This document shows positions 1-60,456 of a DNA stretch of 64,000 bases, piece after piece. Made by a program: the position numbers and the translations under genes. Under the pieces are notes generated by a model. That model saw nothing but the letters and a program-made list of their open reading frames with translations, was not told where the DNA came from and made no database searches. The stretch lies in NCBI RefSeq assembly GCF_056712565.1, contig NZ_CM160072.1; one strand, written 5' to 3'. The number at the start of each line of letters is the position of its first letter. The first letter of the stretch is position 1.

Positions 1-748
1 CGCGATCGGTGTTCTGCACCATGTGCAACGGCACCCGGAACAGACGACAGATTTCTTCAAGCTGAAACTTGCGGGTTTCCAGGAACTGGCTGTCCTCGGC
101 GTTCAGCGCCATCGACTTCCAGTCCAGCCCCATCTCAAGGATCATCGGGCGGTGAGCATTACCAAGCCCGGTGTGACGCTCCTCAAAATCTTTCTTCAGG
201 CGCTCGTAAGCCTGATCTGACAGCGTCTGCTCTGTACGCAACACACCCGACGTCACCGCACCATTGCTGAACAGTCTGGCCCCGTGCTCTTCGGTCGCAG
301 CTGCCAGCGATATTGCCTCGCGGGCATAGGCGATGGGATTCAGCCCCACCAGACCGTCCAGCGTCAGCGTGCGCACATGCCAGATATCTTCCTGGCTCAG
401 CACATCCGTGGAGCCGTCCGAGAATGTGACCTGATAGACCGGCTCCCAGCTACTGTTAAGCTTCGGTACCACACAGCCAGGATCGACGGGCAGCAGTTCA
501 GCCACTTCGCCAAATGCTTTCACTTTGTAGGCGTAAAAGTTTCCCCGCAGGCACAGACAGGTGACCACCAGCTCCCAGAACTCCTGCGGCGTCATATAGC
601 CATTGGGATGCGTGGAGATCAGCTTATGCAGACGTTCGCCGGTGGCCCTCTGTTTCAGGCTGCCGTTCAGGTGATACAGATTGCAGGGCAACATCCCGAC
701 CGACTCTGCCAGCACCCTGACGCAGGAAAAAACCGCCGTCAGTCGCAT
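1..748 (-). CDS. Phage portal-like protein, partial (3' end beyond window start)
   Basis: Minus-strand reading frame opening at ATG 748..746; I hand-translated the first ~50 codons (MRLTAVFSCVRVLAESVGMLPCNLYHLNGSLKQRATGERLHKLISTHPN...) without a stop. Sits immediately downstream of terminase large subunit, the usual portal position. Family assignment is positional inference only. Confidence 0.4.
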   Translation of the reverse strand, partial: MRLTAVFSCVRVLAESVGMLPCNLYHLNGSLKQRATGERLHKLISTHPNGYMTPQEFWELVVTCLCLRGNFYAYKVKAFGEVAELLPVDPGCVVPKLNSSWEPVYQVTFSDGSTDVLSQEDIWHVRTLTLDGLVGLNPIAYAREAISLAAATEEHGARLFSNGAVTSGVLRTEQTLSDQAYERLKKDFEERHTGLGNAHRPMILEMGLDWKSMALNAEDSQFLETRKFQLEEICRLFRVPLHMVQNTDR

Positions 749-873
749 GGCCCGCTGGCTGCTGATCTGCTTTCCGGTATAGGTGTCGTATGACAGCCCG
801 ATAGCCTCCGCCAGCTCTGCTGGCGTGGTCACCGGCGCGTCACTTTTTCGTTGAAATAATCCCGAAAAGAACA

Positions 874-1056
874 CTATTTACCTCCGCCGACAGACAGCTG
901 TGTACGATCGAGATATCGCGCCACCAGCCACGACCAGAACAGGCACAGCGCCCCGGCAACAACAAAACCCGCCGGGGGATAAATCAGCCAGGCACCATAT
1001 GCCAGCAAAAGCGCACCCAGCACGCCCACCAGAGGCGCGAGAATCAGCATGATCAT
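874..1056 (-). CDS. Small hydrophobic protein (60 aa) between terminase and portal-like ORF
   Basis: ORF-track translation is almost entirely hydrophobic (two predicted TM segments); same strand as flanking structural genes. Confidence 0.3.
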
Positions 1057-1067
1057 AATTACCTCAG

Positions 1068-2801
1068 TTAAAGCGAGCGGATCCCGTAGGACTCAATGTG
1101 GTCAGACAGCGTGTCTTCTTTCTCGTACAACATGGCTCTGCCAACCGCCATAATCAGCGCAACTGCACCATCGATTTTGTTTTCCGCCTGCTCTTTGACG
1201 GGTTTCACCACATCATCGTTACCCGGAATGGTTTTGCCGACCACGTTGCCGATACACCAGGTCATGATGGGATTGCCATCATGATGAAAGCGCCCCGATT
1301 CAATTGCCGCTTCCAGCTCTTTCATCGGGTCGGACATGTTGGTGTAGTTCTGAATGATAGTGATGGGGTTCAGGTCTTCATCAGCAAGGTCATGTGACAA
1401 CCCGGTCGCCCCGAAGGGGTCGATGGGTGACTCACTGACCGGGCTGATTTTGTTCGCCGCTTTGGCCTCCTCGAGGATGTAGCGATAATCCACCTCCGCA
1501 CCATCGGTAACGGTCAGAACGCCCATTTCCACCCATTTCTGAAAGCGTTCGGCTGTCCGTCGATCTTCATTTTTCTCGACGCTGTACACCGTGTCATACG
1601 GTACCCAGAAACGCGGGGCCACACTGTAGTAATGCGTTTTACCGTCAATCTCGCGGGTATAAAGTCGCGCCATGCTGTTCATATCCAGCTTACGCGCCAG
1701 GTCAAAGGCCAGAATGCACGGCTGCCCCTCGAACTGCTCAAGGGTCAGTGATTTATCCTCGCAGCTCTGCCAGCTCACCAGGTTGAAATACGCCGAACGC
1801 GCCGACACCCAGATATTGAGGTGTTTTGTTTTAAAGACGTTTGCCAGACGGGCGTTATTTTTCGCACGCTGCTGCTGACTTAACAAAAATTCGCGATAAA
1901 CCGACACGCCAATATTTGGATTGGCTTTTTCCAGCACCTGCGGGTCGGTCCAGTCGTCACCTTCATCAACGGTATAGATGATCCCGAACAGTTCATCGTT
2001 AGGCACCGAGCCATTGAGCATCTCGATGACTTCCCGCCGCTTGTCGTAGCACGGCCCCTCAATGTTGTACCCGGCGGTGGTGATAGCCCACATCAGTGGC
2101 TGACGTCGCGCCCCCATCCCGGTAAGCATCGTGGTGTAAAGCGCATCGGTGGCGTGCTCGTGATATTCATCCACCACCGCACAGTGGGGTGATGAACCAT
2201 CACCGGGGTTACCGATCAGCGGTTCAAACCGCGCGCCATCCTCCGGACGGTTCATGTTTGAGGCGTTAACCTCAATCCCGAACGCTTCCGTCAGCATGGG
2301 TGTGCGTTTACACATCAGTCGAGCCGGGCGAAAGACTTCCCACGCCTGTTTCTCTGTCGTGGCACCGGAATACACTTCCGCGCCAAACTCGTTATCACAG
2401 GCAAAACAATACAGGGCAACACCGGCAGAGATTGCCGATTTGCCGTTCTTACGGGGGATTTCGGTATACACCTCCCGGAAGCGGCGCAGCCGGGAGCCTT
2501 TATTGACCCAGCCAAACGCGCAGCAGATCACAAAGAGCTGCCACGGCTCCAGCGTGATGGGCATCCTCTTAAATGCCCACTCACCCTTGGTGTGCGGCAA
2601 CAGCTGAATAAATTTGGCGGCCCGTTCAGCCAGGTCCTTGTCGAAGCGGTAACGAAACGACTTACTTTTTTCCGCCATCAGGTCATCAAGATGGCGCTGG
2701 CAGGCCTGAATCACAAACTGGCAGGCCACAATCTTTCCGCGCACGACATCCCGGGCATACTGATTGGCAGCATTTACGTTGGGGTAAGATTTCCGGCTCA
2801 T
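1068..2801 (-). CDS. Phage terminase large subunit
   Basis: 577-aa ORF with the characteristic size and ATPase/nuclease organisation of lambdoid terminase large subunits; preceded by small subunit and HNH endonuclease. Confidence 0.85.
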
Positions 2802-3301
2802 GATTCGATGATTTTCAGAAACGGGTTAGTGGCTTTCTTCTGCCCCGCCAGGCCAATCAGACGCTGACGGCTGCTGGGGTCGAGTCCGAGCATTGCCCCC
2901 GTGCTGCTCATCTCGGACTCCTGTTCTTTTTTGGCTGTCAGCTCCGGATTTTTGACCCTGCCGCCCATTGCGCCGGTGATGGTATTGCCCTGTATGGCAA
3001 TATTTTTCACAGCACGTAGCCAGAACTCATAGGCCACGCACCACCGCTCAAGCACCGCGAGGTCAGTCACGCACAGCAGGCCCTGACCGCAGAGTTCTTT
3101 GGTTGTCAGTTGCCACATGATCGTGGCGAGAGGGAGATCTTCTTCAGCGAACCACTCCGGTGGCTCAACACCTTTGATGGGCGTAAAAACAGGTTCATCT
3201 TTGTTCAGGGCTCGCTTGCCGGGGTTTCCGGCCAGCGCCTTGCGCGCCGTTGGCTTGGGGCGACGCCCGGAACGCCCCGCCGTTCCAGCCATATGCGGCA
3301 C
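2798..3301 (-). CDS. Phage terminase small subunit (P27-like)
   Basis: 167-aa basic protein directly upstream of and overlapping the large subunit by 4 bp. Confidence 0.7.
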
Positions 3302-3417
3302 TCCTGGTTAAATTTCATTTTTCGCGGGTATAAAAAAACGATGGGGCGGGCAGTCCGGAAGACGTCAGGTCACAGGGATTTGACCCGCCCCTCCCCTCAG
3401 AAAGTTGAGAATTATTA

Positions 3418-3768
3418 TCACTTCAGTCGTTCACGGGCCGTCTTCGCCTTATGACACGGCCAGCACAGGCTCTGCAGATTGCAGTCTGCATCAGTGCCGC
3501 CATGCGCTTTAGGGATGATGTGGTCAACGGTTTTCGCCTCACGCACCACACCGACATGCAGGCACAACTGACACAGGCCTTTGTCACGCTTCAGCACGCG
3601 CGCGCGGATAACATCCCACTTCGAACCGTAGCCGCGCTGGTGACGGGATTGTCCTGGCTTGTATTGTTTCCAGCCTTCGCTTTTGTGGCTTTCACAATAG
3701 CCTGACGGATCAGTGGTGGTTTGGCGGCAGCCGCGAACGCGGCAGGCTTTTGGGGTTCGTGGGGGCAT
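3418..3768 (-). CDS. HNH endonuclease (terminase-associated)
   Basis: 116 aa with cysteine-rich zinc-finger pairs (CRVRGCR, CQLCLH, CWPCH) and DHIIPKAHGG HNH motif; canonical position upstream of terminase genes. Confidence 0.85.
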   Translation of the reverse strand: MPPRTPKACRVRGCRQTTTDPSGYCESHKSEGWKQYKPGQSRHQRGYGSKWDVIRARVLKRDKGLCQLCLHVGVVREAKTVDHIIPKAHGGTDADCNLQSLCWPCHKAKTARERLK

Positions 3769-3870
3769 TTAAAGTGGGATCTAACTCTAATAATTTAAAA
3801 AATTTAATTGGGTCTTGATATTAATCACATAGACTCAATGCTCTTTAGTTCTTACATAGGTGGTTGTATT

Positions 3871-4311
3871 ATGAGTATCCCCAGTTTAGATGTTCATAAA
3901 GTTGTTAAGTGCGCAGAGCATAAAAAGGCTTTAGATGCAATATCTCTCAAACTTAAGAATAACATTATTGACTCAAGCTCTGAATACGATTTTCTTGGCG
4001 ACACAATAATTTTCAATAAAGATAAAAAAAATAGGTTAACCCTCAAACTTTCAACATATGAACTAGAACTTATTTTCAAAGAAACACTGCTAGTCATTGA
4101 TGAAGCTCCTGTATTGAAGTTTGCTGCCATTGACCCAACCGATGAAAATAACAACGAGCTGATTGATTTATTTTTATCCAAAGGTGGATTTATTTATATT
4201 AGAGAATACAAATCCGAGCCACATTATGAGTATGGCGACACTTCTCTATTTTTACATATACTTGACGCTACTCTTAAAGAGCTTAAATCTGCAAACAAAA
4301 TATCCTATTAA
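3871..4311 (+). CDS. Hypothetical protein, AT-rich moron
   Basis: ORF 3808..4311; likely start ATG 3871 (MSIPSLDV...) preceded by AGGTGG. Very low GC versus flanking phage genes, opposite strand to the structural/lysis genes, no recognisable motif. Confidence 0.45.
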   Translation: MSIPSLDVHKVVKCAEHKKALDAISLKLKNNIIDSSSEYDFLGDTIIFNKDKKNRLTLKLSTYELELIFKETLLVIDEAPVLKFAAIDPTDENNNELIDLFLSKGGFIYIREYKSEPHYEYGDTSLFLHILDATLKELKSANKISY

Positions 4312-4417
4312 ATAAATTTTTGCTAACATAGCCCCGCGCCATGACAAGATTTTCTGTTCTAGATGCAAGGGCTATGTGTGAATATCTATAAACAAAAACC
4401 CCATCCGGTGATTTTTG

Positions 4418-4669
4418 TCATTTTTTAGCCATCTCAATTGCGGCATCAAAAAGTCGTTCAAGAATAAAATCAGGGTACTGTAATTTTTCTTGCTCGATAT
4501 GAAGCTCATAAATTTTCCCTTCCCACTCCCATTTAAAATTAAATCCAGAAGCAGAAGGTGCGAAATGTGTTTTAGCTTTAGGGTTAGCGTAACCAGCAAC
4601 AGTCAACACATCAAACTTAAAATCTTGAGGTTTAATACGCATAATCATATCCTTTGCCAAGTTCATCAT
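4418..4669 (-). CDS. Hypothetical small protein (83 aa), AT-rich moron
   Basis: Intact ORF in the same low-GC island, convergent with 3871..4311; no recognisable domain. Confidence 0.35.
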   Translation of the reverse strand: MMNLAKDMIMRIKPQDFKFDVLTVAGYANPKAKTHFAPSASGFNFKWEWEGKIYELHIEQEKLQYPDFILERLFDAAIEMAKK

Positions 4670-4739
4670 TATTCTTCGCGATTATAAAACAATGAATAAA
4701 ATCATTAAAGCATAGACGTTAAATATCCTCAAAATGTGA

Positions 4740-5177
4740 TTAGTTGGGACATTGCGTCCTGATATACTCCTGCAAGTAATTGACCTGTGAGGTTATCTTG
4801 TCGATTCCACTTCGGAGACGGTAATAATGGAGTTCAGCATCTGCTGTAAGTCTAGGGCTTTCTCCATCGCCCATGCCGCTGGCTCCGGTCGTTGACTTTG
4901 TACAGGTGGCGGCGACTTGCAGGCGCTTATGCCCAGCAGAAACATCAGCACGAAGACTTTCGATAGTCGCATTAGCATCAGCAAGCTCCTTTGTATATCT
5001 GGCATCGAGTTCAGCTACATTACGTTGACGCTTCTGCATATCAGCGATGATGGATGTGGCTTTATCGCGCTGTACTTTGTAGACGATGGCGTCATCACGG
5101 TAATTATCAACAGCCCATGACAAGCAGACGATGATGCAGATAACCAGAGCGGATATAATCACCGTTACTCTGCTCAT
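4740..5177 (-). CDS. Rz-like i-spanin
   Basis: 145 aa with N-terminal TM anchor then coiled-coil-like periplasmic region; overlaps and follows the lysozyme gene; contains an embedded Rz1 frame. Confidence 0.75.
4793..4972 (-). CDS. Rz1-like o-spanin lipoprotein, embedded in Rz in another frame
   Basis: Internal start [18 protein letters not shown] gives a signal peptide with lipobox (ISAC) followed by a proline-rich segment ([14 protein letters not shown]), as in lambda Rz1. Confidence 0.6.
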
Positions 5178-5650
5178 ACCTGAATCTCTTTGACCGTTCC
5201 GCCGGCTTCTTTGAATTTTGCAATCAGGCTGTCAGCCTTATGCTCAAACTGACCATAACCAGCTCCCGGCAGTGAAGCCCAGATATTGCTGCAACGGTCG
5301 ATAGCCTGACGAATATCACCGCGATCAATCATCGGTAAAGCACCACGCTCTTTAATCTGCTGCAGTGCAACAGCATCCTGGCTTTTTGGAGAGAAGTCTT
5401 TCAGTCCAAGCTGTTTACGGTATGCATCCCACCAGCGGGAAAGAAGCTGGTAGCGCCCGGCAGCCGTTGATTTGAGTTTTGGGTTTAGCGTGACAAGTCT
5501 GCGAGGGTGATCGGAGTAATCAGTGAATATTTCTCCGCCCACAATGACGTCATAACCATGATTACGTGTCGGTTGTAGCCCATTATCCGTTCCTTCTGAC
5601 CAGGCCACCATATCGAGGAAAGCTTTACGCTGAGGATTAAGATTTTGCAT
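5174..5650 (-). CDS. Phage endolysin (lysozyme, T4/P21 R-like)
   Basis: 158 aa; N-terminus [24 protein letters not shown]...YDVIVGG is typical of lambdoid R lysozymes; sits between holin and spanin genes. Confidence 0.9.
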
Positions 5651-5942
5651 TTTTCACCCCTGTCAGTCGTTCCCAGAAGTACGTCAGTGCAACCGAACCC
5701 ATCGCACCACTAATCCCCGCAGTTGCGAGAATCATGTAAATACTGAATCCACTTTCGATACTGATTAGGCCACCAATAACACCGGTGAATCCTGATACAA
5801 CTATCTGAGCGAGGGCATTTATCCAGCTCCACGTTGCTTTACTCTGCTTCACATCAATCAGGTAACGGACAAGCCCCCCCCAACCTGCGATGATCAGCAA
5901 AACAAGCCAGAACGCTCCGGCAAGATTCTCTTTTTCGTGCAT
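5637..5942 (-). CDS. Holin (alternative upstream start at 6041)
   Basis: Small multi-TM protein overlapping the lysozyme start; internal start MHEKENLAGAFWLVLLIIAGWGG... gives ~101 aa with about three TM helices. Confidence 0.55.
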   Translation of the reverse strand: MHEKENLAGAFWLVLLIIAGWGGLVRYLIDVKQSKATWSWINALAQIVVSGFTGVIGGLISIESGFSIYMILATAGISGAMGSVALTYFWERLTGVKNAKS

Positions 5943-6051
5943 ATGAATAGCCGCAGTTTCGCCTCCGACAGAAAATCGGAGCGTGAAATGATATGTTGAT
6001 TTATTATTAATTCGAAAATTACATTCTAATTCATCAGGCATTGATGATTTT

Positions 6052-6090
6052 ATAATAATAAAGGCCGTTCGTTACGGCCTTTATTATTGA
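6052..6090 (-). terminator. Hairpin terminator between the late-region moron and the holin
   Basis: Perfect stem AAAGGCCGT / ACGGCCTTT (6060..6082) with 5-nt loop, flanked by A/T runs. Confidence 0.5.
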
Positions 6091-6093
6091 TAT

Positions 6094-6429
6094 TTATTTT
6101 ACATCCCAAGGTAGTTCCTCAAGAGAGAAGACTAATTCATTATCAATAATTTCGTATTCTGCATAACCTTCAACCTCTCCTGAGAAGTTATTGTCAACGC
6201 ATCCTTCATAATAGCTATATGGTGCTATAAAGTGAAACCCATATTCATCTATCTCTGTGATTTCAAAATTGTAGTAATCGTAAGAATATCGAATATCATC
6301 ATCAGAAATAGAACTAAGTACATAGTTATTAAATTTATCGGAATGCTTAACGATAAGTTCTGACAACGCGTCAAGATTCTCTGGAGAGATATTTCCTAAC
6401 GGTAATCTGTACTCAACGGCATTAATCAT
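6094..6429 (-). CDS. Hypothetical acidic protein (111 aa), late-region moron
   Basis: Low-GC ORF rich in D/E/Y, bracketed by two terminator hairpins, between the Q antiterminator and the lysis cassette. Confidence 0.5.
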   Translation of the reverse strand: MINAVEYRLPLGNISPENLDALSELIVKHSDKFNNYVLSSISDDDIRYSYDYYNFEITEIDEYGFHFIAPYSYYEGCVDNNFSGEVEGYAEYEIIDNELVFSLEELPWDVK

Positions 6430-6477
6430 ACAACCTCCTTTTTAACTGATATGAGGTTATATAATGTGTTTCAGTAC

Positions 6478-6510
6478 AAGTAAATAAAAACCCGCTCAAC
6501 AGCGGGTTCG
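6478..6510 (-). terminator. tR'-like rho-independent terminator downstream of Q
   Basis: Minus-strand stem AACCCGCT-GTTG-AGCGGGTT followed by a U-rich tract; about 105 nt downstream of the Q stop, where lambdoid PR'/tR' lie. Confidence 0.5.
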
Positions 6511-6614
6511 TGAAAATTATCAACGGCAGACATACAAAGCCCATCGTTGAGAAAATCTTATCCATATTTTTTGAAAAATGCAAGCTTCATGTCACTATCT
6601 TCGGCGAAAATCAC

Positions 6615-7367
6615 TTATCTCGTCACCTTTCTCAATTGTGTTTCAGCATATGCTTCTTCCTGCCAGCACTTTGTTACTAGTTTATCAATTACGTCTGCAT
6701 ATCCTTTGTACCACTGATAATCAGTCAGGTCTGGAACCAGCTTCTGGACATGACGTCGTGCCAGTGTAGTCGGTAAACGGCTAAACCGGTTTCCATTGCA
6801 ACGCCCACAAGTCTTATAAACAGGCGTGCCATGAAGCCGGGTTCTTTTTTCATCCAGGACAATACCTTTACCCTTACACCCTCTGCACGCCGTGCTGACT
6901 TCTCCCTTGCCATGACAATGCTGACACAGTTCCTTCACCCACTCTTCTTTGATAACGGATTCCCCGCTTCTGGAATGTTTCACCACTTCGCGCAATACAT
7001 TATGAAATCCAGTACCAGTACAATGCTCACAGCGAGCCTTACTTGCCGCAGACCTGGAATAATCAGCAAAGGCAAAATTCACAAGGTAAGGGATGATCTG
7101 TAACCGGGTTTCTTCACTCAATTTGTTCAATGTCGGGTTATCCAGTGCCATCGCGTAATTGAGCAGGCCTTCAATCGCAAACTGAGGATCCTGAACACCA
7201 ACTTTTGCCAGGAATAAGGCAAACCCAAGCGGTGCTTTCGACTGCACCATCCCCTGCGCAGCCATTACATCCGTAATTGTTAAACCACCCGAGCCTGTCG
7301 CCGATGCGTCATCGCTCAATTTTGGAGATTTTGGGGAGTAATATTTCGGTAAGGCTTCAAGGTTCAT
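6615..7367 (-). CDS. Late-gene antitermination protein Q-like
   Basis: Multiple CxxC zinc-binding pairs (CEHCTGTG, CQHCHGKG, CRGCKGKG, CGRCNGN); located immediately upstream of tR' and the lysis cassette. Start may be 7409 or internal ATG 7367. Confidence 0.6.
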   Translation of the reverse strand: MNLEALPKYYSPKSPKLSDDASATGSGGLTITDVMAAQGMVQSKAPLGFALFLAKVGVQDPQFAIEGLLNYAMALDNPTLNKLSEETRLQIIPYLVNFAFADYSRSAASKARCEHCTGTGFHNVLREVVKHSRSGESVIKEEWVKELCQHCHGKGEVSTACRGCKGKGIVLDEKRTRLHGTPVYKTCGRCNGNRFSRLPTTLARRHVQKLVPDLTDYQWYKGYADVIDKLVTKCWQEEAYAETQLRKVTR

Positions 7368-7380
7368 GCTCGTTCTCCAC

Positions 7381-8376
7381 TTACACCAGTACGCCAATTG
7401 CCAGCGCACGATCGATAAAACGAAATATCAGCTCCAGCTGGGAGCCATACATCTCTTCAAATGCCACGGTATCCGCATGCAGCTCGTCGTGATGCTTTCT
7501 GCACAAAGGCAACACAAAAAGGTCATGCGCTTTTGTACCCATTCCACCCTGTCCGTGGCCTATCAGGTGGTGGGGATCATCAGCGGGCTTTCCACAACAT
7601 GCACACGACTGTGTCTTAACCCAGCGCGTGTACTTTTCATTAACCCAGCGGCGACGTTTTGGGCGTAACATAAAAGACTCCGGCGACTCCGGATCCACTT
7701 TCAGCGCCAGCACCTTTTTCGCCTTATCCTGGATGATGCTGGTGGCAGGAACCGAAGGCACAAGGTCACTTTCCCGGGTGACAGACGGCACAACAGGCTT
7801 CGGTAATCTCAGTGCCTTACGGGCTGCACTTTCCGGTAAGGCATCCGCCAGATCATTACGAACCAGCCACCAGCACAGTTCCGGCATTGTCACAACGTGA
7901 CTGTCATCAAAACCGAGATCCCGACGCACAACAGACAACACCCAGCGGGCACAGTTATCCGTTGCCATTGATTCCAGCCGTTCCGTGAACTGATCGCGAA
8001 GCAGGTTATCGCAGTGCCAGCACAGACGGATTGCGCCCGGCGCGTGTCGCATTGTGGTCATGTTCTCGCTGTGCCATCCGGAATGAGGCCACTGACAGCC
8101 CTTTTCACGAAGTAACCAGCTTTCAAGACATTCCACACCCCCCGCACGACGAATAACTGCCTCATTGCGGAACACGGCCCGAATGGCAGGATCATCCGCC
8201 AGCGGTTGTGATGCCGCCGGAACGGCACCACTGGCAAAAGATGAATAACGTTCCGGCTCAGGCTCCAGCAGGACACGCCCCTGCATAAACAGGGGCATCA
8301 GCTCTGAACCGGGCCTGAACAATACGATCCCCATACGCGGGGCAATTTCAGGGGTCAGTAGTGCTCTCACGGTCAC
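7381..8376 (-). CDS. DUF968-family protein (YdfU-like) with C-terminal HNH-like motif
   Basis: C-terminal CACCGKPADDPHHLIGHGQGGMGTKAHDLFVLPLCRKHHDELH resembles the zinc-finger/HNH signature of DUF968 proteins of E. coli lambdoid prophages. Confidence 0.6.
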   Translation of the reverse strand: MTVRALLTPEIAPRMGIVLFRPGSELMPLFMQGRVLLEPEPERYSSFASGAVPAASQPLADDPAIRAVFRNEAVIRRAGGVECLESWLLREKGCQWPHSGWHSENMTTMRHAPGAIRLCWHCDNLLRDQFTERLESMATDNCARWVLSVVRRDLGFDDSHVVTMPELCWWLVRNDLADALPESAARKALRLPKPVVPSVTRESDLVPSVPATSIIQDKAKKVLALKVDPESPESFMLRPKRRRWVNEKYTRWVKTQSCACCGKPADDPHHLIGHGQGGMGTKAHDLFVLPLCRKHHDELHADTVAFEEMYGSQLELIFRFIDRALAIGVLV

Positions 8377-8377
8377 C

Positions 8378-9175
8378 TCAATGAACGGTATCGAGCAGCT
8401 TTAACAGCTCAGGGAATCGGGATTCGAAGAAATGCGGCTGCGTCTCGCGCGGATTTGCAGGACTGGTGATGTTCTTGCCGAACATGCAGCCTTTCGCCGT
8501 CAGCGACCAGAATTTTTTGATGTTGTTAATCGCTGTACGGCTGTATCGTTCGCGCTGTTCGACGATCCCCAGCTTCGCCATCTGGTGATATGCCTGATTA
8601 GCCGTAAGGCGGATACCATACTGTTTCAGCAGTGCACTCAGCGACAGTGTCGGGCGACTTGAGCCATCAGGCGCGTCAGCAGGAGCATCAATGGCATAGC
8701 GCGGTGCCAGATTCGGTAAGCCAACAGCCTCCTGAAGCTTCTGACAGGCTCCAAGCACTGATGAGTTAGACAGGTTTAATTCCCGGCGCATAAAGTCCAG
8801 CAGGATCACGCCAGCCTGCATCTTGTCAGCAGCCTGCCCGGATAATTTTTCCGGTGTGCTGGTTACCATATCGAAAGTACGGATCACCTTCAGATGGAAT
8901 GACGGGCTTATCCACATTGCATAGGCATACACCAGTTCTTTGCAGACATACGTCCCCTGGTTATTTCCGCCACGAATAACGTTAACTGGCTCTATATTGA
9001 CCGAGTTGCAAATCTGCAACTCGCTTATTAAACGTTCAGTTTGCTCATTGCGGAGCCAGAATGCAGGCTTATGCTTATCCAGAGAACCGGCAGCCCTGTG
9101 CAGATCGTTCAGGCTGTAACGCCCATAAGCATCACGACGAACTTCAATACCATCAATAACCATCAGATTATTCAT
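8378..9175 (-). CDS. KilA-N domain protein
   Basis: N-terminus MNNLMVIDGIEVRRDAYGRYSLNDLHRAAGS...KPAFWLRNEQTERL is the KilA-N DNA-binding fold common in prophage early regions. Confidence 0.7.
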   Translation of the reverse strand: MNNLMVIDGIEVRRDAYGRYSLNDLHRAAGSLDKHKPAFWLRNEQTERLISELQICNSVNIEPVNVIRGGNNQGTYVCKELVYAYAMWISPSFHLKVIRTFDMVTSTPEKLSGQAADKMQAGVILLDFMRRELNLSNSSVLGACQKLQEAVGLPNLAPRYAIDAPADAPDGSSRPTLSLSALLKQYGIRLTANQAYHQMAKLGIVEQRERYSRTAINNIKKFWSLTAKGCMFGKNITSPANPRETQPHFFESRFPELLKLLDTVH

Positions 9176-9194
9176 ACTTCGTTTCTCCTCTTAA

Positions 9195-9584
9195 TCAGGC
9201 AGCTGCACCCGCCGTTTTCTCGTACTTACTGATAGTGATCTCGACCTTCCCTTCCGGGATAACCGGTCCCCACTCCACCAGCATTCTTTTCACCTGACTG
9301 TCGTCTTCCCACACACCCGCGTGGGTCAGGGCGTCAAACAGCGCCTTGTTATAGTTGTCCAGATCGCGGATCCGGTTATCCGGAGGAAACAACACGATCT
9401 CCACTGAAGCAGGTGCCGACGTTGGTTTTGGCAGACGACGTAACTGCTCAACTATTGCTGCACACGCCGCGCTCTGGAATTTGCGCCCCGCCGCGCTTAT
9501 CAGGCTCTTACCAGCAAACGCCCCTTTGTTGGGGTGTCGCCAGTACGTGTTCACGCTGGGCGGAAACGGCAGAATCAGCTTCAT
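9195..9584 (-). CDS. rusA: RusA-family Holliday junction resolvase
   Basis: 129 aa, MKLILPFPPSVNTYWRH...DLDNYNKALFDALTHAGVWEDDSQV matches the RusA signature. Confidence 0.85.
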   Translation of the reverse strand: MKLILPFPPSVNTYWRHPNKGAFAGKSLISAAGRKFQSAACAAIVEQLRRLPKPTSAPASVEIVLFPPDNRIRDLDNYNKALFDALTHAGVWEDDSQVKRMLVEWGPVIPEGKVEITISKYEKTAGAAA

Positions 9585-9907
9585 ACTTTCAGGCCCCTCT
9601 CATGTAACCAGTGGGCTGCACGCAGCCTGGCGTTTTCCTTACCGGCAAGCAGTGAGCGGATAATCCCGACCGCCTCGCTGTCGTCGTCCTTCACCGCGGT
9701 ATGAAGAGTGATACCCCGGGCCACGCCACGCTTTATCGTGATGACGCCTTTTTTCTCCAGTGCTCGAAGATGCTCCACCGCTGCATTCACTGAACGGTAT
9801 CCCAGCATGGTTGCCACCTCCTGATTGGTTGGCGGGAAGCCACGTTCTTTCTGATAAGAAATCAGCATATCCAGCACCTGCTGCTGGCATTGAGTTAACG
9901 TCGTCAT
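9581..9907 (-). CDS. LexA-type DNA-binding domain protein (no S24 peptidase domain)
   Basis: 108 aa resembling the LexA N-terminal winged-helix domain (LTQCQQQVLDMLISYQKERGFPPTNQEVATMLGYRSVNAAVEHLRALEKKGVI) but ending before any autocleavage domain. Confidence 0.5.
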   Translation of the reverse strand: MTTLTQCQQQVLDMLISYQKERGFPPTNQEVATMLGYRSVNAAVEHLRALEKKGVITIKRGVARGITLHTAVKDDDSEAVGIIRSLLAGKENARLRAAHWLHERGLKV

Positions 9908-10590
9908 GCCGCCATCTCCCTGAGCAGTTTTTCCGCCTGCTGGCGAACCTGCGCCAGAAACGCCTCACCACATGCCTCAAGTTCATCGCGCCCGATGTAG
10001 CTGATTGCCGGTCCCTTCCAGGTCTTGTCAAAAACAGCAATAGCACCAGCGAAGAAAGCTCCTGTCGGCACCTGCTTCTCGTCTTTCGGGATAAACCAGA
10101 CAGGCAGTTCAAAACCAATACGCCCGCGAATAAAAGCAATATGATCTGCATCTTCCGGCCACCACACTTCGCTGGTGGCAGCTTTGATCAGGAAAACATA
10201 GCGCCCGCCTTTATCACGCATGGCACTGGCATGCTTCATGATGTAACGCATGCCGGTGATGTATTGCCCCTCATGCTGACTGGCGCGGCTGTATGGGGGA
10301 TTACCAAAGGCAGCACCTTTAAGCTCCGCAAGACGTTCTGACCAGTCATGCGCCAGCGCATTGTCTTCCGCCGTGTAATACGCGGCACATTTGGCGTTAC
10401 CACCGTCGGTGAACAGATCCAGAACAAACGGGCCAAACAGGGTGTTAATTCCCCAGAAAATGTTGTCCGGCGTGCGCCACTGATCGCCCACTTCCTTCAG
10501 TTCATGGGCTGGTTTGTTCCGCAGCTCCACCAGCACCTGGCAATATTTATTACTCATTAAGCCCCCACGTAATTCCCTGACAGATACCAC
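9904..10590 (-). CDS. Phage DNA N6-adenine methyltransferase (Dam-like)
   Basis: 228 aa with the amino-methyltransferase catalytic motif NPPY (GAAFGNPPYS). Confidence 0.8.
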   Translation of the reverse strand: MVSVRELRGGLMSNKYCQVLVELRNKPAHELKEVGDQWRTPDNIFWGINTLFGPFVLDLFTDGGNAKCAAYYTAEDNALAHDWSERLAELKGAAFGNPPYSRASQHEGQYITGMRYIMKHASAMRDKGGRYVFLIKAATSEVWWPEDADHIAFIRGRIGFELPVWFIPKDEKQVPTGAFFAGAIAVFDKTWKGPAISYIGRDELEACGEAFLAQVRQQAEKLLREMAA

Positions 10591-11051
10591 TCTTCACCCG
10601 ATGCAGCGCGCTTGCTGCTTTTCCGTAAGCACCGCTCACGACGCGCCAGAAAATTGTTTCGTTCTGGCTGGGAGTGGCTTTCACGGAATGCCGCCATCCA
10701 CACGGTTGCAGCACGACGGTATAAACCCCTGGACTCCAGTTCTTCAGCCTGGCGGGTCAGGCACAAAATCACCCGTGGATCGTTAGTGCCGACATAGAAA
10801 TTGCGCACAGGTCTGGTTTCTCGAACTGGTTGTGGTTCCGGTTCCTGCGCTCTCTCAGTCAGGCGCGGGAAATGTCTGCGTGTATCTCCTTCACAACGGT
10901 GAGCCACACGCCCACTCTGACGTAACTTGCTTGCTGACTGCAGAACGCGCTGTCGTGAGTAACCTGCAAAAGCATCCGCAATGTCACCGGAAGTACACCC
11001 CGGATGGGCTTCAATGAATTTCTGAACGTCATTTAACAGACTCATGATCAC
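10557..11051 (-). CDS. Hypothetical prophage protein, possibly PerC-like regulator
   Basis: 164 aa; central region (LTRQAEELESRGLYRRAATVWMAAF) resembles PerC-family activators; weak assignment. Confidence 0.4.
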   Translation of the reverse strand: MIMSLLNDVQKFIEAHPGCTSGDIADAFAGYSRQRVLQSASKLRQSGRVAHRCEGDTRRHFPRLTERAQEPEPQPVRETRPVRNFYVGTNDPRVILCLTRQAEELESRGLYRRAATVWMAAFRESHSQPERNNFLARRERCLRKSSKRAASGEEWYLSGNYVGA

Positions 11052-11989
11052 CCCCTGAATCCTGCCGGGATCTGGCTGTAGTCCACGTTGTCGTAACTGG
11101 CTTTGAAGTACGGGTCCTCGCGTTTTTCGGTGTACGTACTTACGGACGGCGATAAGCGCAGGGAAAGCTCATCCCATTTTTCCCGCAGCTTCGACGGGCT
11201 GAGCACGTTACGGCACCAGAACGGATCGCGGCTGACGCGGCTGTACATCTCGCAGATTTGTTTGTGAGTACGACCATCCTGCACACACATCAGGCGAATT
11301 TCGTTTGCCCAGGCTGTCCAGTTCGGTTCTTTGGGACGAACCACCTCGCCGTCACATTCGGCAGCCTGCTCGTACAGGGCGATGATTTTTTTCCAGAGCC
11401 ACTGTGCGCAGGTCAAATCATCCTGCGTTCCCCACTGGCGCTTTTTAGGGCTGAATACAACAGCATCAGGATGGCGAGTTAAAAACTCCTGTTCAGCCGT
11501 CTGCGTGTCCGGTTGCGAAGCGTCCGGACGAGAAGTTTTTTTATCTGACGGATCATGTTTTGATTTTACTGACGGATCCCCGCCAGATTCTGACGGGTGA
11601 AAACCCGCTTTTTTGCCAGATTTCGACGCATCAAATTTTGACGGGGCAGATTTTGATGCGTCAGATTTTGACGGGTCAGAATCTGACAGTTGAGAAAATG
11701 CCGCTGCCTGAAGCTTCGCAACGTTAAGCTGATAAACATTCGACGCATTGCGGTTACCCTGGCGACGCGCCTTACGCGTTAACCAGCCTTCTGCTTCCAG
11801 CCGTGCGATAGCCGTTCTGACGGTACTCATCCCCGCGCCAATCTGGCGGGCAATGGTTTCAATTGATGGCCAGCACACACCTTCGTCATTACTGAAATCA
11901 GCCAGGCGGGCCATAATTGCCACGCTGGATAACTTCATGCCTGACGCAGCGCAACCATCCCATACATAGCCGGTTAATTTAGTGCTCAT
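11048..11989 (-). CDS. Phage replication initiation protein (HTH N-terminal domain, repeat-containing linker)
   Basis: 313 aa; N-terminal winged-helix region (CWPSIETIARQIGAGMSTVRTAIARLEAEGWL) typical of lambdoid O-like initiators; internal repeat peptide DASKSAPSKFDASKSGKK encoded by tandem DNA repeats. Confidence 0.65.
   Translation of the reverse strand: MSTKLTGYVWDGCAASGMKLSSVAIMARLADFSNDEGVCWPSIETIARQIGAGMSTVRTAIARLEAEGWLTRKARRQGNRNASNVYQLNVAKLQAAAFSQLSDSDPSKSDASKSAPSKFDASKSGKKAGFHPSESGGDPSVKSKHDPSDKKTSRPDASQPDTQTAEQEFLTRHPDAVVFSPKKRQWGTQDDLTCAQWLWKKIIALYEQAAECDGEVVRPKEPNWTAWANEIRLMCVQDGRTHKQICEMYSRVSRDPFWCRNVLSPSKLREKWDELSLRLSPSVSTYTEKREDPYFKASYDNVDYSQIPAGFRG
11541..11692. repeat. Iteron-like tandem repeats inside the replication gene (putative origin)
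   Basis: About eight imperfect ~15-bp direct repeats with core (c)AGATTTTGACGG, e.g. agattttgatgcgtc / agattttgacgggtc / agaatctgacagttg contiguous at 11648..11692. Confidence 0.5.
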
Positions 11990-18205: not shown

Positions 18206-19338
18206 CAATCAGGAAACACCACCAGGGAGAAACGATCAATATAACTTTCACCTACAAAGGAGTTAGATGTCGTGAGCCGCTTTCCAATCTGGAAGTAACA
18301 CCAAAGAACATTAAATACGCCGAGCGTACACTCGGCGAAATCCATAATAAGATCGAAAGGGGAACATTCATTTATGCAGAATATTTTCCCCGTTCTGCTC
18401 GTTTGAAAATTTTTGGTAATGCTGCTGCAAGCAAAACGGTAAAGATGTACCTGGACGAATATCTTGAAATCTGCGAAACAAGAAAACTTTCACCCTCTAC
18501 GATTGGTGGCTATAAAAAATGCCGTAGTGCGTTAGCCTCACTTCACATTTGCCCTGCAAGTGAATTAACACCAGCAACCCTGAAAGCGTGGATTCAAAGC
18601 CAGAAAACAACCTTAAAAACCATTCGCAACCAGTTATCTTTCCTACGGTCAGCACTTGATGAAGCCGTGACCGATGGGGTACTTCAAATTAACCCCGTAT
18701 CGTTAGTAACAGCTTCGCGCTACCAAAGTGATAAGTCAGAAGCAGAAAGCAGCTATGTGGTTGATCCGCTATCACCAGCAGAAGTTGATGCATTACTAGC
18801 AGCAGCCGGAAACAAACAATGGGAAAATCTGTTCCGGTTCGCCATACATACAGGCCTGCGTAGTTCTGAATTATGTGCCCTACGATGGCATGATATCGAC
18901 TTTGTTGGAAAAACAGCCCATGTTCAGAGCGCAAGTGTTGTCGGAGTTATCAAAGGAACAAAGACAAAAGCCGGTACCCGTAAAGTTGAACTGACTGAAG
19001 AAGCAATGTTGGCGTTGATAAACCAGAAGCCATTTACATTCATGAAGGATGCTACTGTCTTTGAAGATCCAAAGACCAATAAACCCTGGGCAAGTGCTGA
19101 TGCAATTAGGAAAAAAGCATGGGTGCCAACATTGCGAAAAGCAGGTATTCGTTACAGAAACCCATATCAAACCAGGCATACATTCGCCACCAGCCATATC
19201 AGCCGGGGAGCAAACCTGTTTTGGCTTGCGGCTCAAATGGGCCATAAAGGGCCTGAAATGTTATTCAGGCACTATGGACAATACTTGAAAGAGTATGATG
19301 GGAGGGCAAGTATCAAGGATAAAAAGGCTTTATTTTAA
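18166..19338 (+). CDS. Tyrosine integrase (phage integrase family)
   Basis: 390 aa with catalytic-domain signatures (LRSSELCALRWHDID; HTFATSHISRGANLFWLAAQMGHKGPEMLFRHYGQY), reading toward the att remnant. Confidence 0.9.
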   Translation: MGQTKLLKLPRGVTIRKHHQGETINITFTYKGVRCREPLSNLEVTPKNIKYAERTLGEIHNKIERGTFIYAEYFPRSARLKIFGNAAASKTVKMYLDEYLEICETRKLSPSTIGGYKKCRSALASLHICPASELTPATLKAWIQSQKTTLKTIRNQLSFLRSALDEAVTDGVLQINPVSLVTASRYQSDKSEAESSYVVDPLSPAEVDALLAAAGNKQWENLFRFAIHTGLRSSELCALRWHDIDFVGKTAHVQSASVVGVIKGTKTKAGTRKVELTEEAMLALINQKPFTFMKDATVFEDPKTNKPWASADAIRKKAWVPTLRKAGIRYRNPYQTRHTFATSHISRGANLFWLAAQMGHKGPEMLFRHYGQYLKEYDGRASIKDKKALF

Positions 19339-19947
19339 GTCATTATGCCAATCGTCTACTGTTTGAAACCAAATTTTTAACCTTTGCATAAAGGTACGAT
19401 CCTTTTTGGGAGGGTGGTACCTTTGAAAAGAAGTATGTAACGCTTCGATAACTCCCATACAAGCATCAATTACTTCTTGTGCTTTAACCGGGCGATCGGC
19501 ATCTGAAAGCTTGTGAGCGACCTCACAATCCAGAGTTGCTTTCTCTAGTACAGATGAGAACACCTCGTCAGGTATATACAGTCCTCTGCTTTCCAAAATG
19601 CAAATCAGTTTGGAAACTTGTTGAGCTTTAGCCAAGATAGTTAACAAGTATGAAACAGAAGCCTTTGTTCTATCCTTTTGCAACCTTAACAATCGATGCT
19701 TTGATGCTCTAATTTTAGGTTGAGTTGTCTGACTGAGCCAATAGTTAGAAGAAATATCAGAAATTTCAATAACTAACTTTGAAATAGCATCAATAATTGA
19801 TTTCGATTCAGAACGTGTCGCCAGTTTTACAGAATTATTGTACGCAACTCGCCATCCAATGAAAACTAAGCAGACGCTAACTACTGTGATACACCACGAA
19901 TACTGTCCTATTTGTGCTACTAATGACATTGGTTCCGTACTGATCAA
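19330..19947 (-). CDS. Membrane-anchored protein, third gene of the integrase-proximal cassette
   Basis: 205 aa; single N-terminal TM helix (YSWCITVVSVCLVFIGW) then a ~170-aa soluble domain with no recognisable motif; 3' end overlaps the integrase 3' end; 10-bp gap to the upstream gene. Confidence 0.5.
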   Translation of the reverse strand: MISTEPMSLVAQIGQYSWCITVVSVCLVFIGWRVAYNNSVKLATRSESKSIIDAISKLVIEISDISSNYWLSQTTQPKIRASKHRLLRLQKDRTKASVSYLLTILAKAQQVSKLICILESRGLYIPDEVFSSVLEKATLDCEVAHKLSDADRPVKAQEVIDACMGVIEALHTSFQRYHPPKKDRTFMQRLKIWFQTVDDWHNDLK

Positions 19948-19957
19948 CTATCGCCTC

Positions 19958-20284
19958 TTATACTCTTTCTGGTTGTGCTAAATCAATAAATTTATCAATC
20001 TGTTCTTTGTAGAACGGAACATCACTTTTTATAATCAAACGTGCTTTAACGTTGGCTTTAGGTATCCCTTCCTTACGGATGAGACCTCCAAACGCCTCTT
20101 CTAAGAAAGAGGAACCAACACCCAGTGCTATACCGCGAAAATCAACCACAATCTCCTGTTCAGTACCCTTCAGCGCAGGCACCAAAAACTCTCTACGAAA
20201 TCTTTCCGCACTGTGTGGGCTATCCGTTGTGTAACGTCCGAAAGGTGTTCTGGAGAACTCCTTCGCTATGACGATATTTCTCAT
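19958..20284 (-). CDS. Small STAS-like protein (DUF4325-like), second gene of cassette
   Basis: 108 aa; segment EIVVDFRGIALGVGSSFLEEAFGGL resembles the STAS-like DUF4325 proteins that I recall pairing with GHKL ATPases; 4-bp gap to the upstream ATPase gene. Confidence 0.45.
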   Translation of the reverse strand: MRNIVIAKEFSRTPFGRYTTDSPHSAERFRREFLVPALKGTEQEIVVDFRGIALGVGSSFLEEAFGGLIRKEGIPKANVKARLIIKSDVPFYKEQIDKFIDLAQPERV

Positions 20285-20288
20285 AAAA

Positions 20289-21200
20289 TCATCTCCTGGG
20301 AACCAGCGACCATTGTAGTAAAGTACCCGGTATGTACTCAGCTAGCTTCTCACATCGAGGACTACTGTCATTAGAATTATAGCTATAACGAGCCCTTCCT
20401 ATTAGTATCAGAAGTGTCTCATTATCCTCACAACCTGCCCCAATAGGTCTCTTGATATCTTCAGAGCCATTTCCCCGTCCGGAACCAACAAAGCGGGATT
20501 CCCCTACTAACATAGCTCTTTCCACAGAAGATACTTCGTTTTGAATGCTATGACCATCACCATTAGGCACGAAACTTCTATAAATCCCCAATCCAAGGTC
20601 ACAAACGATAAAAACGACTTTATTTTCATCACGATTGAACCAAGCGCACTGCCACCATCGTTTACCTTTGAGAAGCTGAATATCTGACTCGAACCCCTCA
20701 TCTTCATACGCATGATGAGAAACATTGAGCAAAGCTTCACTAATCGCTGTCAGCAGTAAGCCTAACTGTTCATTATTAAGCAGAGCACTTTTCTGCAGCA
20801 TGAGTACTGTTTCAACAATATGCTCGTAAGGTTCGACAGCTGACTGAAAGTATCGTTCCTCCCTCGTAAGTGCATTCAGTTTCTCTTCTGTGCCAGCAAG
20901 CAAAGCACGAGCAAGTCCAGTACCAACGATCCATCTATGCCCAGATGGGTTATCATCCTTTTTAGGCCATTTAAAACGTATAAAATTAGGGTCCCGGGTT
21001 AAAAATTGAGCTCTATTTACTATGGCAAAGAACAGTACCGATGCCGCAGCTGAGGCAAATTTTACCTTGGACAAATCAACTATAACTCGACCTTTATTTT
21101 TTACTCCAATCGATTCAATCGAGTTGATGAAGTTCAATGTCCCAGCCCTAGAATCATCTGAGTAAATGCAAAATTTGCTTGGGGGTACCAGTATGGTCAT
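20289..21200 (-). CDS. GHKL (Bergerat-fold, histidine-kinase-like) ATPase, first gene of cassette
   Basis: 303 aa; N-box-like EALLNVSHHAY, G1 box VCDLGLGI (DxGxG), G2-like GSGRGNG; ~130-aa N-terminal extension of unknown fold; AT-rich promoter-like region upstream (21201..21340). Confidence 0.6.
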   Translation of the reverse strand: MTILVPPSKFCIYSDDSRAGTLNFINSIESIGVKNKGRVIVDLSKVKFASAAASVLFFAIVNRAQFLTRDPNFIRFKWPKKDDNPSGHRWIVGTGLARALLAGTEEKLNALTREERYFQSAVEPYEHIVETVLMLQKSALLNNEQLGLLLTAISEALLNVSHHAYEDEGFESDIQLLKGKRWWQCAWFNRDENKVVFIVCDLGLGIYRSFVPNGDGHSIQNEVSSVERAMLVGESRFVGSGRGNGSEDIKRPIGAGCEDNETLLILIGRARYSYNSNDSSPRCEKLAEYIPGTLLQWSLVPRR

Positions 21201-58746: not shown

Positions 58747-59247
58747 TCAGTCGGCAAAATTTCGCCAAATATCCTGGATATCTTCCATCAGATAGCCACG
58801 ATAGAGCAGAAAACGCTGGATCTTAACTTTTTCTGAAAAGACAGTTGGCAAAGGTTCGCCATATTTTCGCGTCGCCTGATCGCGCGCCAGTGCGCACCAG
58901 TCGATGTCACATTCACGCATCGCTTTTTCTGTCGCTTCGCGGGAAATACCTTTCTGATTCAGTTCCTGACGAATACGCGCAGGTCCATAACCTTTGCGGC
59001 TACGGCTGGCGATAAAGCGCGCAACAAATCGGCTGTCATCAAGATAGCCATGTTCGTGGCACCAGGCAATAACGCGCTCGTAATCTTCTGCCGTGGCATC
59101 AATCTCTTCCGGGCCATTTTTGCCCATAATAGGTGCCGCGAGTTTACGTCGCAGTTCTTGCTCACTGTGATCGCGCACCGCCAGAATGCGTACCGCACGA
59201 TCCAACAGGCGAGCATATGCCGGGCGACGGGATGTTGATTCTGTCAT
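58747..59247 (-). CDS. recX: RecA regulator RecX
   Basis: 166 aa immediately downstream of recA. Confidence 0.95.
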
Positions 59248-59315
59248 GGCATATCCTTACAACTTAAAAAAGCAAAAGGGCCGCAGATGCGACCCTTGTG
59301 TATCAAACAAGACGA

Positions 59316-60456
<1,141 letters not shown>

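Follow-up and report, generated by a model that had tools for sequence, protein, structure and literature searches.

The subject of this analysis is a pair of adjacent genes in a lambdoid prophage carried on a 64-kb stretch of DNA (64,000 nucleotides of contig NZ_CM160072.1, RefSeq assembly GCF_056712565.1; hereafter, the window), one encoding a protein of 108 amino acids (aa), here called LexN, and the other an orphan N6-adenine DNA methyltransferase. LexN consists of a LexA-type DNA-binding domain without the S24 peptidase domain, joined to a two-helix tail of its own, and it belongs to a real gene family under strong purifying selection, whereas its adjacency to the methylase gene is positional. 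We tentatively propose that LexN is a RecA-insensitive, LexA-like repressor made in lytic growth that would re-silence LexA-controlled genes, a role we regard as possible rather than probable.

Both genes are ordinary accessory genes that are already named in RefSeq and PHROGs and occur in thousands of genomes, and they are routine prophage content. Phage-encoded LexA domains without the protease are likewise already known, as exemplified by gp6 of the Bacillus tectivirus GIL01. What is specific to LexN is the two-helix tail, the host-type recognition residues, the position in the nin region, and a very high prevalence. The main point of interest is the role that such a protease-less LexA domain might play, given that it is under strong purifying selection and is found in about two-fifths of E. 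coli genomes, including those of Shiga toxin 2 (Stx2)-converting phages.

LexN is a LexA DNA-binding domain without its protease

The first-pass annotation, made from the sequence alone, had described the minus-strand open reading frame (ORF) at 9581-9907 as having the LexA N-terminal fold but no S24 peptidase domain, and this description is borne out by Pfam, by a match to a solved structure, and by a structural model. Residues 1-65 align with positions 1-65 of the 65-position Pfam model PF01726 (LexA_DNA_bind; E 2.9e-19), the best match among solved structures is the DNA-binding domain of E. coli LexA (1lea; E 6.9e-16), and 35 of the first 69 residues are identical to those of E. coli LexA (51%). 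An AlphaFold model based on 40 family members (predicted local distance difference test score, pLDDT, 81) consists of a winged helix-turn-helix (wHTH) domain at residues 1-68, a low-confidence linker, and two further helices at residues 75-88 and 93-103, and Foldseek superposes it on DNA-bound LexA (3jso) at ~1.0 Å over 67-68 residues with 50-51% identity. Full-length E. coli LexA additionally carries the S24 peptidase with its Ser119/Lys156 dyad, an Ala-Gly cleavage loop, and the C-terminal dimer interface, none of which is present in LexN; Pfam detected no Peptidase_S24 match in the protein, which ends at residue 108. Against TIGR00498, the NCBIfam LexA equivalog, LexN scores 69.3 bits, below the cut-off of 110.95, and covers only positions 1-91 of the 203-position model. 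The protein is catalogued in RefSeq as a "LexA family transcriptional regulator" (WP_000210172.1) and in PHROGs as a "transcriptional repressor" (phrog_362).

The 40-aa tail is peculiar to LexN. Six variants of the tail returned nothing significant from Pfam, and alignment of a tail profile to a LexA alignment with hhalign gave a probability of 0.4%, with no equivalent of the LexA hinge and cleavage region (around Ala84-Gly85) detected. A remnant of the LexA cleavage loop, as hinted at by a MAFFT alignment and by the NCBIfam match extending to position 91, was considered as the origin of the tail and rejected because hhalign found nothing. The window allele does contain an A88-G89 dipeptide, but it is not conserved across the LexN family, and the tail is predicted to be helical. 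Because LexN lacks both the S24 peptidase and the cleavage loop, as judged by Pfam and hhalign, RecA-stimulated self-cleavage and hence RecA-dependent inactivation of the protein are not expected, in agreement with the earlier suggestion that it would be non-cleavable.

As a separate observation, a representative protein library contains many chains of ~140-350 aa in which two LexA DNA-binding-domain stretches stand in tandem, apparently also without S24 (P0131, P0148, P0151, P0152, P0155, P0159, P0161, and P0163). These represent another protease-less LexA architecture, possibly a single-chain pseudo-dimer.

The LexN family is widespread and under purifying selection

An exhaustive HMMER search together with a profile search delineated a family of proteins of ~105-135 aa, all of which have the LexA domain plus the tail (tail consensus EAVxLLRALLAGEExARxRAxxxLxxRG). 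Its members are encoded by prophages of Escherichia, Salmonella, Citrobacter, Cronobacter, Klebsiella, Enterobacter, Atlantibacter, Kosakonia, and Hafnia, and full-length relatives with 40-56% identity, including over the non-LexA tail, are found in those of Salmonella, Citrobacter, Cronobacter, Klebsiella, Enterobacter, and Atlantibacter. Twelve positions are invariant across the family (Q8, P26, E30, S39, L50, K53, I56, R64, G65, I66, A97, and L101), and N41 is kept in at least 90% of its members. Of 5426 complete E. coli genomes, 2222 contain LexN (41%; coverage of at least 80%).

The truncated-LexA appearance of LexN and its score below the NCBIfam cut-off for LexA might suggest a decaying, functionless fragment of a captured lexA gene. 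Such a fragment would not be expected to persist in the form observed here: the ORF is intact in all 81 E. coli-type copies compared, polymorphism among these amounts to 58 synonymous against 9 nonsynonymous changes (pN/pS 0.05), the full length including the tail is retained at the between-genus identities given above, and the gene has its own ribosome-binding site and a coupled start codon. These selection and conservation data refute the idea of a dead fragment, to which we assign next to no probability. The linker and tail account for eight of the nine replacements, K20Q being the only one in the DNA-binding domain.

The Klebsiella allele (loci L002-L004, 5425-6393) is noteworthy in its own right. 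It is 130 aa long, reads S-S-N-A-V-L-L-H in helix III, and lies two genes after a gene of the DinI family, which comprises inhibitors of the RecA co-protease, with RusA and methylase genes absent nearby. The presence of both DinI and LexN is suggestive of a common SOS theme in these prophages, although nin regions are mosaic.

The nin region of a lambdoid prophage carries LexN and the methylase

The prophage that hosts the two genes is mEp460/SfII-like, and they occupy its nin region, between the replication genes and the antiterminator gene Q, within a co-oriented run of minus-strand genes at 7.4-12 kb of the window (Table 1). Over the 2-kb stretch compared (9100-11100), there is 100% identity to E. 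coli APEC O1 and to several further extraintestinal pathogenic E. coli (ExPEC) genomes, and 97-98% identity to phage mEp460 and to Stx2a- and Stx2c-converting phages. In the RefSeq annotation of APEC O1, the same genes are followed by Q, lysis genes, terminase, and head and contractile-tail genes, while the opposite side of the prophage carries a CI-type S24 repressor, Cro/CII-like genes, and an integrase adjoining glaH; the gene order from the replication genes to Q in the window agrees with that of this annotated prophage.

The genes in this run are tightly packed. The stop codon of the PerC-family gene overlaps the start of the methylase gene (TAATG), the methylase stop overlaps the LexN start (ATGA), and the LexN stop overlaps the start of the RusA gene (ATGA); a consensus scan for minus-strand promoter-like sites at 9900-11100 found none. 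The best explanation for this arrangement is that LexN and the methylase are delayed-early nin operon genes whose rightward transcription leads from the immunity region towards Q, and that both are translationally coupled to their neighbours. Given the overlapping gene boundaries and the lack of a promoter-like site, the nin genes would be expressed from the delayed-early lytic transcript and would be silent in lysogens.

A comparison of window coordinates with APEC O1 also indicates a 1-bp indel somewhere within positions 1-9100, since bases 1-200 of the window correspond to position 10903 of locus L001 and the match at 9100-11100 implies 10902; the window is thus not strictly identical to that genome.

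LexN is predicted to bind DNA and may re-silence LexA-controlled genes

In E. coli LexA, helix III contacts DNA through Ser39, Asn41, Ala42, Glu44, and Glu45 (PMC3091678). LexN keeps four of these five residues in the alignment (S39, N41, A42, and E45), with V in place of Glu at position 44, and also keeps the wing residues R64-G65-I66. Because these residues are kept, sequence-specific DNA binding at a LexA-like, CTG-type half-site is the most economical reading and would be expected. The free N-terminal domain of LexA retains some SOS-box binding and repression, hence its removal by ClpXP (PMC10584840), and since that free domain still represses, a stable protein made up of the N-terminal domain only, such as LexN, could plausibly hold SOS genes off.

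The sequence of events that we tentatively propose begins with a LexA DNA-binding domain being captured from a gammaproteobacterial host, then joined to a new two-helix tail, which would have given rise to LexN. The protein would be produced after prophage induction, when activated RecA (RecA*) would be unable to inactivate it, and would bind CTG-type half-sites, likely in host SOS operators or at LexA-controlled genes of co-resident elements, thereby re-repressing LexA targets once host LexA has been destroyed. In its most specific form, this would make LexN a RecA-proof SOS off-switch that re-occupies the host SOS operators vacated by cleaved LexA after prophage induction, which we consider rather unlikely. 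If it were true, LexN would shut off SOS functions that may harm the phage, such as the LexA-controlled antirepressors that rival prophages encode, genes for colicins and lysis, toxins induced by SOS, and mutagenic repair, and, given the prevalence of its gene, would constitute a widespread and overlooked modifier of the SOS and antibiotic responses. More generally, binding of LexN to SOS operators would amount to a phage-encoded, RecA-insensitive brake on the SOS response, with a bearing on prophage competition, the induction of Shiga-toxin phages, and antibiotic-induced mutagenesis.

The first-pass annotation had proposed a motif search for the operator of LexN, and this search brought to light neither an SOS-like box in the prophage nor a candidate operator. 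The weight-matrix scan, built from E. coli SOS boxes, covered the 64-kb window and found no SOS-like box in the prophage; the sole strong LexA box was the host recA operator, TACTGTATGCTCATACAGTA, at 60437-60456. Pairs of CTGT and ACAG in both orientations, at spacings of 0-16 over 30 kb of prophage, occurred at chance level with no excess, and an inverted-repeat search of the Q-to-lysis (late-promoter) and immunity regions found no recurring half-site, although an operator of unfamiliar sequence would escape these searches. Since the prophage contains no SOS box, LexA-type targets of LexN, if there are any, would lie in the host or in co-resident elements.

Several observations weigh against the repressor role proposed above, beginning with this lack of an SOS-like box in the prophage, which speaks against a conserved SOS-box target. 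In the LexN family, Glu never occurs at position 44, whereas most aligned LexA sequences keep Glu44; at position 45, most alleles have E or D, and others have L, T, A, G, or I. LexN also diverges faster than its neighbours, with between-genus identities of 41-55%, compared with 69-80% for RusA and 73-81% for Dam. Together, the variable residues 44 and 45 and the fast divergence suggest that the specificity has changed or become diversified, as opposed to being directed at a single conserved host target. The spacing of LexA operators is fixed by the C-terminal dimer, which is absent from LexN, and AlphaFold modelling of a LexN self-fusion (30-residue linker, paired alignment), aimed at a homodimer formed by way of the tail, gave no confident dimer (predicted template modelling score 0.34, with a lower pLDDT for the tail than in the monomer). 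Finally, our literature search found no published experiment on this enterobacterial nin-region LexA-domain family; the "LexA family" of papers on Stx phages refers to CI-type repressors.

Some of these observations fit a different role, the main alternative, in which LexN would be a transcription factor directed at the phage. Its specificity would have drifted from the SOS box, and it would act at an operator in its own genome to time the expression of phage genes. The precedent is gp6, which consists of a LexA DNA-binding domain only, recognises a palindrome that differs from the LexA box, and acts as a transcriptional activator (PMC6182141). That residues 44 and 45 vary, and that LexN diverges faster than the neighbouring genes, would be consistent with allele-specific operators, and the label that PHROGs gives to the family is also in keeping with a phage regulator. 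However, no repeated or CTGT-type palindrome stands out in the late-promoter or immunity regions, with the limit for unfamiliar operators noted above, the CTGT-Nx-ACAG scan likewise gave no excess, late transcription of the prophage is already served by the Q antiterminator, and the precedent is one of architecture and not of orthology, as LexN and gp6 have no pairwise similarity. On balance, we consider an operator of its own somewhat unlikely. Should LexN have one, the gp6 principle, in which a captured LexA domain serves as a phage regulator, would have evolved independently a second time.

LexN compared with its closest known systems

Like LexN, gp6 of GIL01 is a phage-encoded LexA DNA-binding domain without a protease and is encoded among early genes, and this truncated LexA homologue has been found to activate the GIL01 late promoter P3 (PMC6182141). 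The two proteins differ in several respects: gp6 is 66 aa long and has no tail, whereas LexN has a conserved tail and is 108 aa long; the specificity of gp6 has reportedly moved away from the box of its host LexA, whereas LexN keeps most of the host-type contact residues; and gp6 is encoded by a linear tectivirus genome, whereas LexN resides in the nin region of a lambdoid prophage. BLASTP of LexN against gp6 gave no alignment at E <= 100, and because of this lack of pairwise similarity, the two are, as judged from their sequences, independent captures from different host LexA lineages.

A second parallel is NinH of lambda-type phages, a small HTH protein that is encoded beside a Holliday-junction resolvase (NinG/Rap) in the nin region just before Q. 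By analogy, LexN could be a DNA-binding accessory of recombination or replication that partners RusA and is not a transcription factor. RusA is found downstream of LexN in five of seven lineages and directly abuts it in four (the window, Salmonella, Atlantibacter, and locus L093), another gene lying between the two in Cronobacter and Enterobacter, and the equivalent place in VT2-Sakai is occupied by NinG/Rap and then NinH. Against such a partnership, the Klebsiella prophages have LexN but no RusA, adjacency is weak evidence where nin gene order is mosaic, and the kept LexA recognition residues favour sequence-specific over structure-specific binding. NinH itself belongs to another fold family (PF06322) without homology to LexN and lies downstream of its resolvase, whereas LexN lies upstream. 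An accessory role of this kind therefore appears improbable, and we continue to favour, tentatively, the repressor reading.

The methylase slot next to LexN is a swappable cassette

The first-pass annotation had listed the two genes as one feature, and a functional meaning for their adjacency does not withstand comparison across loci, in which the Dam-like methylase gene behaves as a presence/absence cassette that is swapped or missing in other genera. It is conceivable that LexN and the methylase form a functional pair, with LexN either controlling the methylase gene, as the C proteins of restriction-modification systems do, or reading methylated DNA. A methylase gene lies directly upstream of LexN in four lineages and, across these, belongs to three unrelated families (PF05869, PF02086, and PF00145), and some prokaryotic winged-helix domains are described as sensors of N6-methyladenine (6mA) (PMC11037411). 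The distribution of the two genes is nevertheless difficult to reconcile with pairing. Among 80 loci from IMG/VR with LexN 98-99% identical to that of the window, 12 lack Dam entirely, and in these the PerC stop directly overlaps the LexN start (TAATG; e.g., L009 4990-5005). About 500 more complete E. coli genomes contain LexN than contain the window Dam (2222 versus 1724 of 5426, the latter also at a coverage of at least 80%), three lineages (represented by L002, L092, and L093) have LexN without any methylase, the nin region of VT2-Sakai has a PF05869 methylase without LexN, and LexN lies downstream of the methylase gene, with no intergenic room for an operator. Coupling of Dam and LexN was thus rejected as largely refuted by the presence/absence data, and we see only a slim chance that the two are functionally paired.

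The gene found upstream of LexN differs markedly among genera: a longer PF05869 Dam of 392 aa in Cronobacter, a PF05869 Dam of 440 aa plus a 696-aa C5 methylase in Salmonella, an unrelated PF02086 (D12-class) methylase in Atlantibacter, a replication gene with no methylase in L093, a hypothetical gene with no methylase in Enterobacter, and DinI plus a hypothetical gene in Klebsiella. What stays constant around LexN is the nin position, with DUF968 downstream in every lineage, Q wherever the locus extends that far, and RusA downstream in five of the seven lineages. As the methylase is lost or replaced around LexN and the methylase of VT2-Sakai occurs without it, the methylase slot is a swappable cassette, and the pairing seen in the window is incidental. 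The direct PerC-LexN junctions suggest exchange of the cassette at overlapping stop and start codons, of which the clean presence or absence of Dam would be a tidy example.

The orphan adenine methylase

The first-pass annotation had also recognised the gene adjacent to LexN as an orphan N6-adenine methyltransferase with an NPPY motif, and its family scores, the intact motif, and the lack of an adjoining endonuclease gene all support this identification. The protein scores 153.4 bits against the Dam family PF05869 (E 5.9e-45; cut-off 28.1) and 253.9 bits against TIGR01712 (phage_N6A_met; cut-off 97.05), matches the PADLOC profile MTase_II end to end (1-217 on 1-217), is 98% identical to that of Shigella phage SfII, and is already named "phage N-6-adenine-methyltransferase" in RefSeq. 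No restriction endonuclease is encoded beside it, the neighbours being PerC, LexN, RusA, KilA-N, and DUF968, and none of the neighbours scanned against PADLOC (LexN, KilA-N, and DUF968) had a restriction-enzyme match. The ORF (9904-10590, minus strand) had been delimited correctly, but the start at 10590, which is the GTG lying furthest upstream in the open frame, does not hold; the likely start is the ATG at 10557, giving 217 aa, because the RefSeq gene in APEC O1 measures 654 nucleotides and the 217-position PADLOC profile is matched over its entire length.

With respect to specificity, M.EcoVT2Dam has been reported to be GATC-specific (PMC6602927). This enzyme is most likely the product of orf32 of VT2-Sakai, the sole methyltransferase annotated in the 32 kb of VT2-Sakai examined. 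Like the window methylase, the presumed M.EcoVT2Dam is an orphan PF05869 protein of a lambdoid nin region, but the two share only 31% identity over 143 aa and differ in length (175 aa for orf32 versus 217 aa), and GATC specificity of the window enzyme, while most likely as the default expectation, would be an extrapolation. The prophage shows no depletion of GATC (observed/expected 0.94). A non-specific methylase of the M.EcoGI/M.EcoGII type was considered and rejected, since these enzymes belong to the beta class and their motifs come in another order (PMC5778455). As with LexN, the methylase would be made during lytic development, where it would methylate replicating phage DNA, most likely at GATC.

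These considerations affect how the methylase might be assayed. Other methylases encoded by E. coli prophages were found to be silent in lysogens (PMC4659465, PMC5778455). The methylome of lysogens, which had been proposed as a check, is unlikely to be informative because the gene lies in a lytic nin operon in which no internal promoter was found and because those other methylases are silent in lysogens; in addition, host Dam would mask any GATC specificity.

Two side observations concern the wider Dam family. Homologues with an extra N-terminal region (392-440 aa) occur in Cronobacter (L005 4826-6004) and Salmonella (L088 1599-2921), and even the short, 217-aa Dam genes are named "phosphoadenosine phosphosulfate reductase" in RefSeq phage records and in PHROGs, a name that looks like annotation carry-over from fused forms.

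Other features of the window

Table 1. Features of the nin region and of the host recA locus. Coordinates are window positions; residue numbers refer to the protein named.
Feature	Position	Strand	Basis
DUF968/HNH-like protein; rest of the nin-like module before Q	7381-8376	-	Pfam
KilA-N protein; rest of the nin-like module before Q	8378-9175	-	Pfam
RusA Holliday-junction resolvase, 3' of LexN; ATG overlaps LexN TGA	9195-9584	-	Pfam
LexN, 108 aa; LexA-type winged helix plus C-terminal two-helix tail, without S24	9581-9907	-	Pfam, PDB match, AlphaFold
LexN residues 75-103; two predicted amphipathic helices (75-88, 93-103), A97 and L101 invariant	9599-9685	-	AlphaFold, family alignment
LexN residues 1-68, wHTH; helices 6-22, 28-35, and 40-52, beta-hairpin wing 56-68	9704-9907	-	Pfam, AlphaFold, Foldseek
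LexN codons specifying residues 39-45 (S V N A A V E), DNA-contact positions of LexA helix III	9773-9793	-	Alignments
Orphan phage N6-adenine DNA methyltransferase, 217 aa (PF05869/TIGR01712)	9904-10557	-	Pfam, NCBIfam, PADLOC, RefSeq
Methylase codons for NPPY (residues 86-89), catalytic motif IV of amino-methyltransferases	10291-10302	-	Sequence reading
Methylase codons for DLFTDGG (residues 47-53), likely S-adenosylmethionine (AdoMet)-binding glycine-rich motif (putative function)	10399-10419	-	Sequence reading
PerC/YfdN-family regulator, 164 aa; same operon, 5' of methylase	10557-11051	-	Family searches, RefSeq match
O-like replication initiator	11048-11989	-	Family searches
Host recX and recA, with canonical recA SOS box	58747-60456	-	Window reading, box scan

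The PerC/YfdN-family gene (10557-11051, minus strand) constantly accompanies the Dam slot on its upstream side. The N-terminal half of its product has weak matches to MarR/BilQ-type winged-helix domains, and a PerC/ANR-like segment lies at the C-terminal end. Prophage PerC-family proteins regulate host virulence genes in enteropathogenic and enterohemorrhagic E. coli (EPEC and EHEC).

At the prophage end, three cargo genes are located between the integrase gene and host glaH (19330-21200, minus strand). They encode a 303-aa protein with a weak match to HATPase_c_2, a histidine-kinase-like ATPase domain, a 108-aa DUF4325 STAS-like protein, and a 205-aa protein without a family assignment. None of the three had a match in PADLOC, and together they could be an uncharacterised defence or regulatory module.

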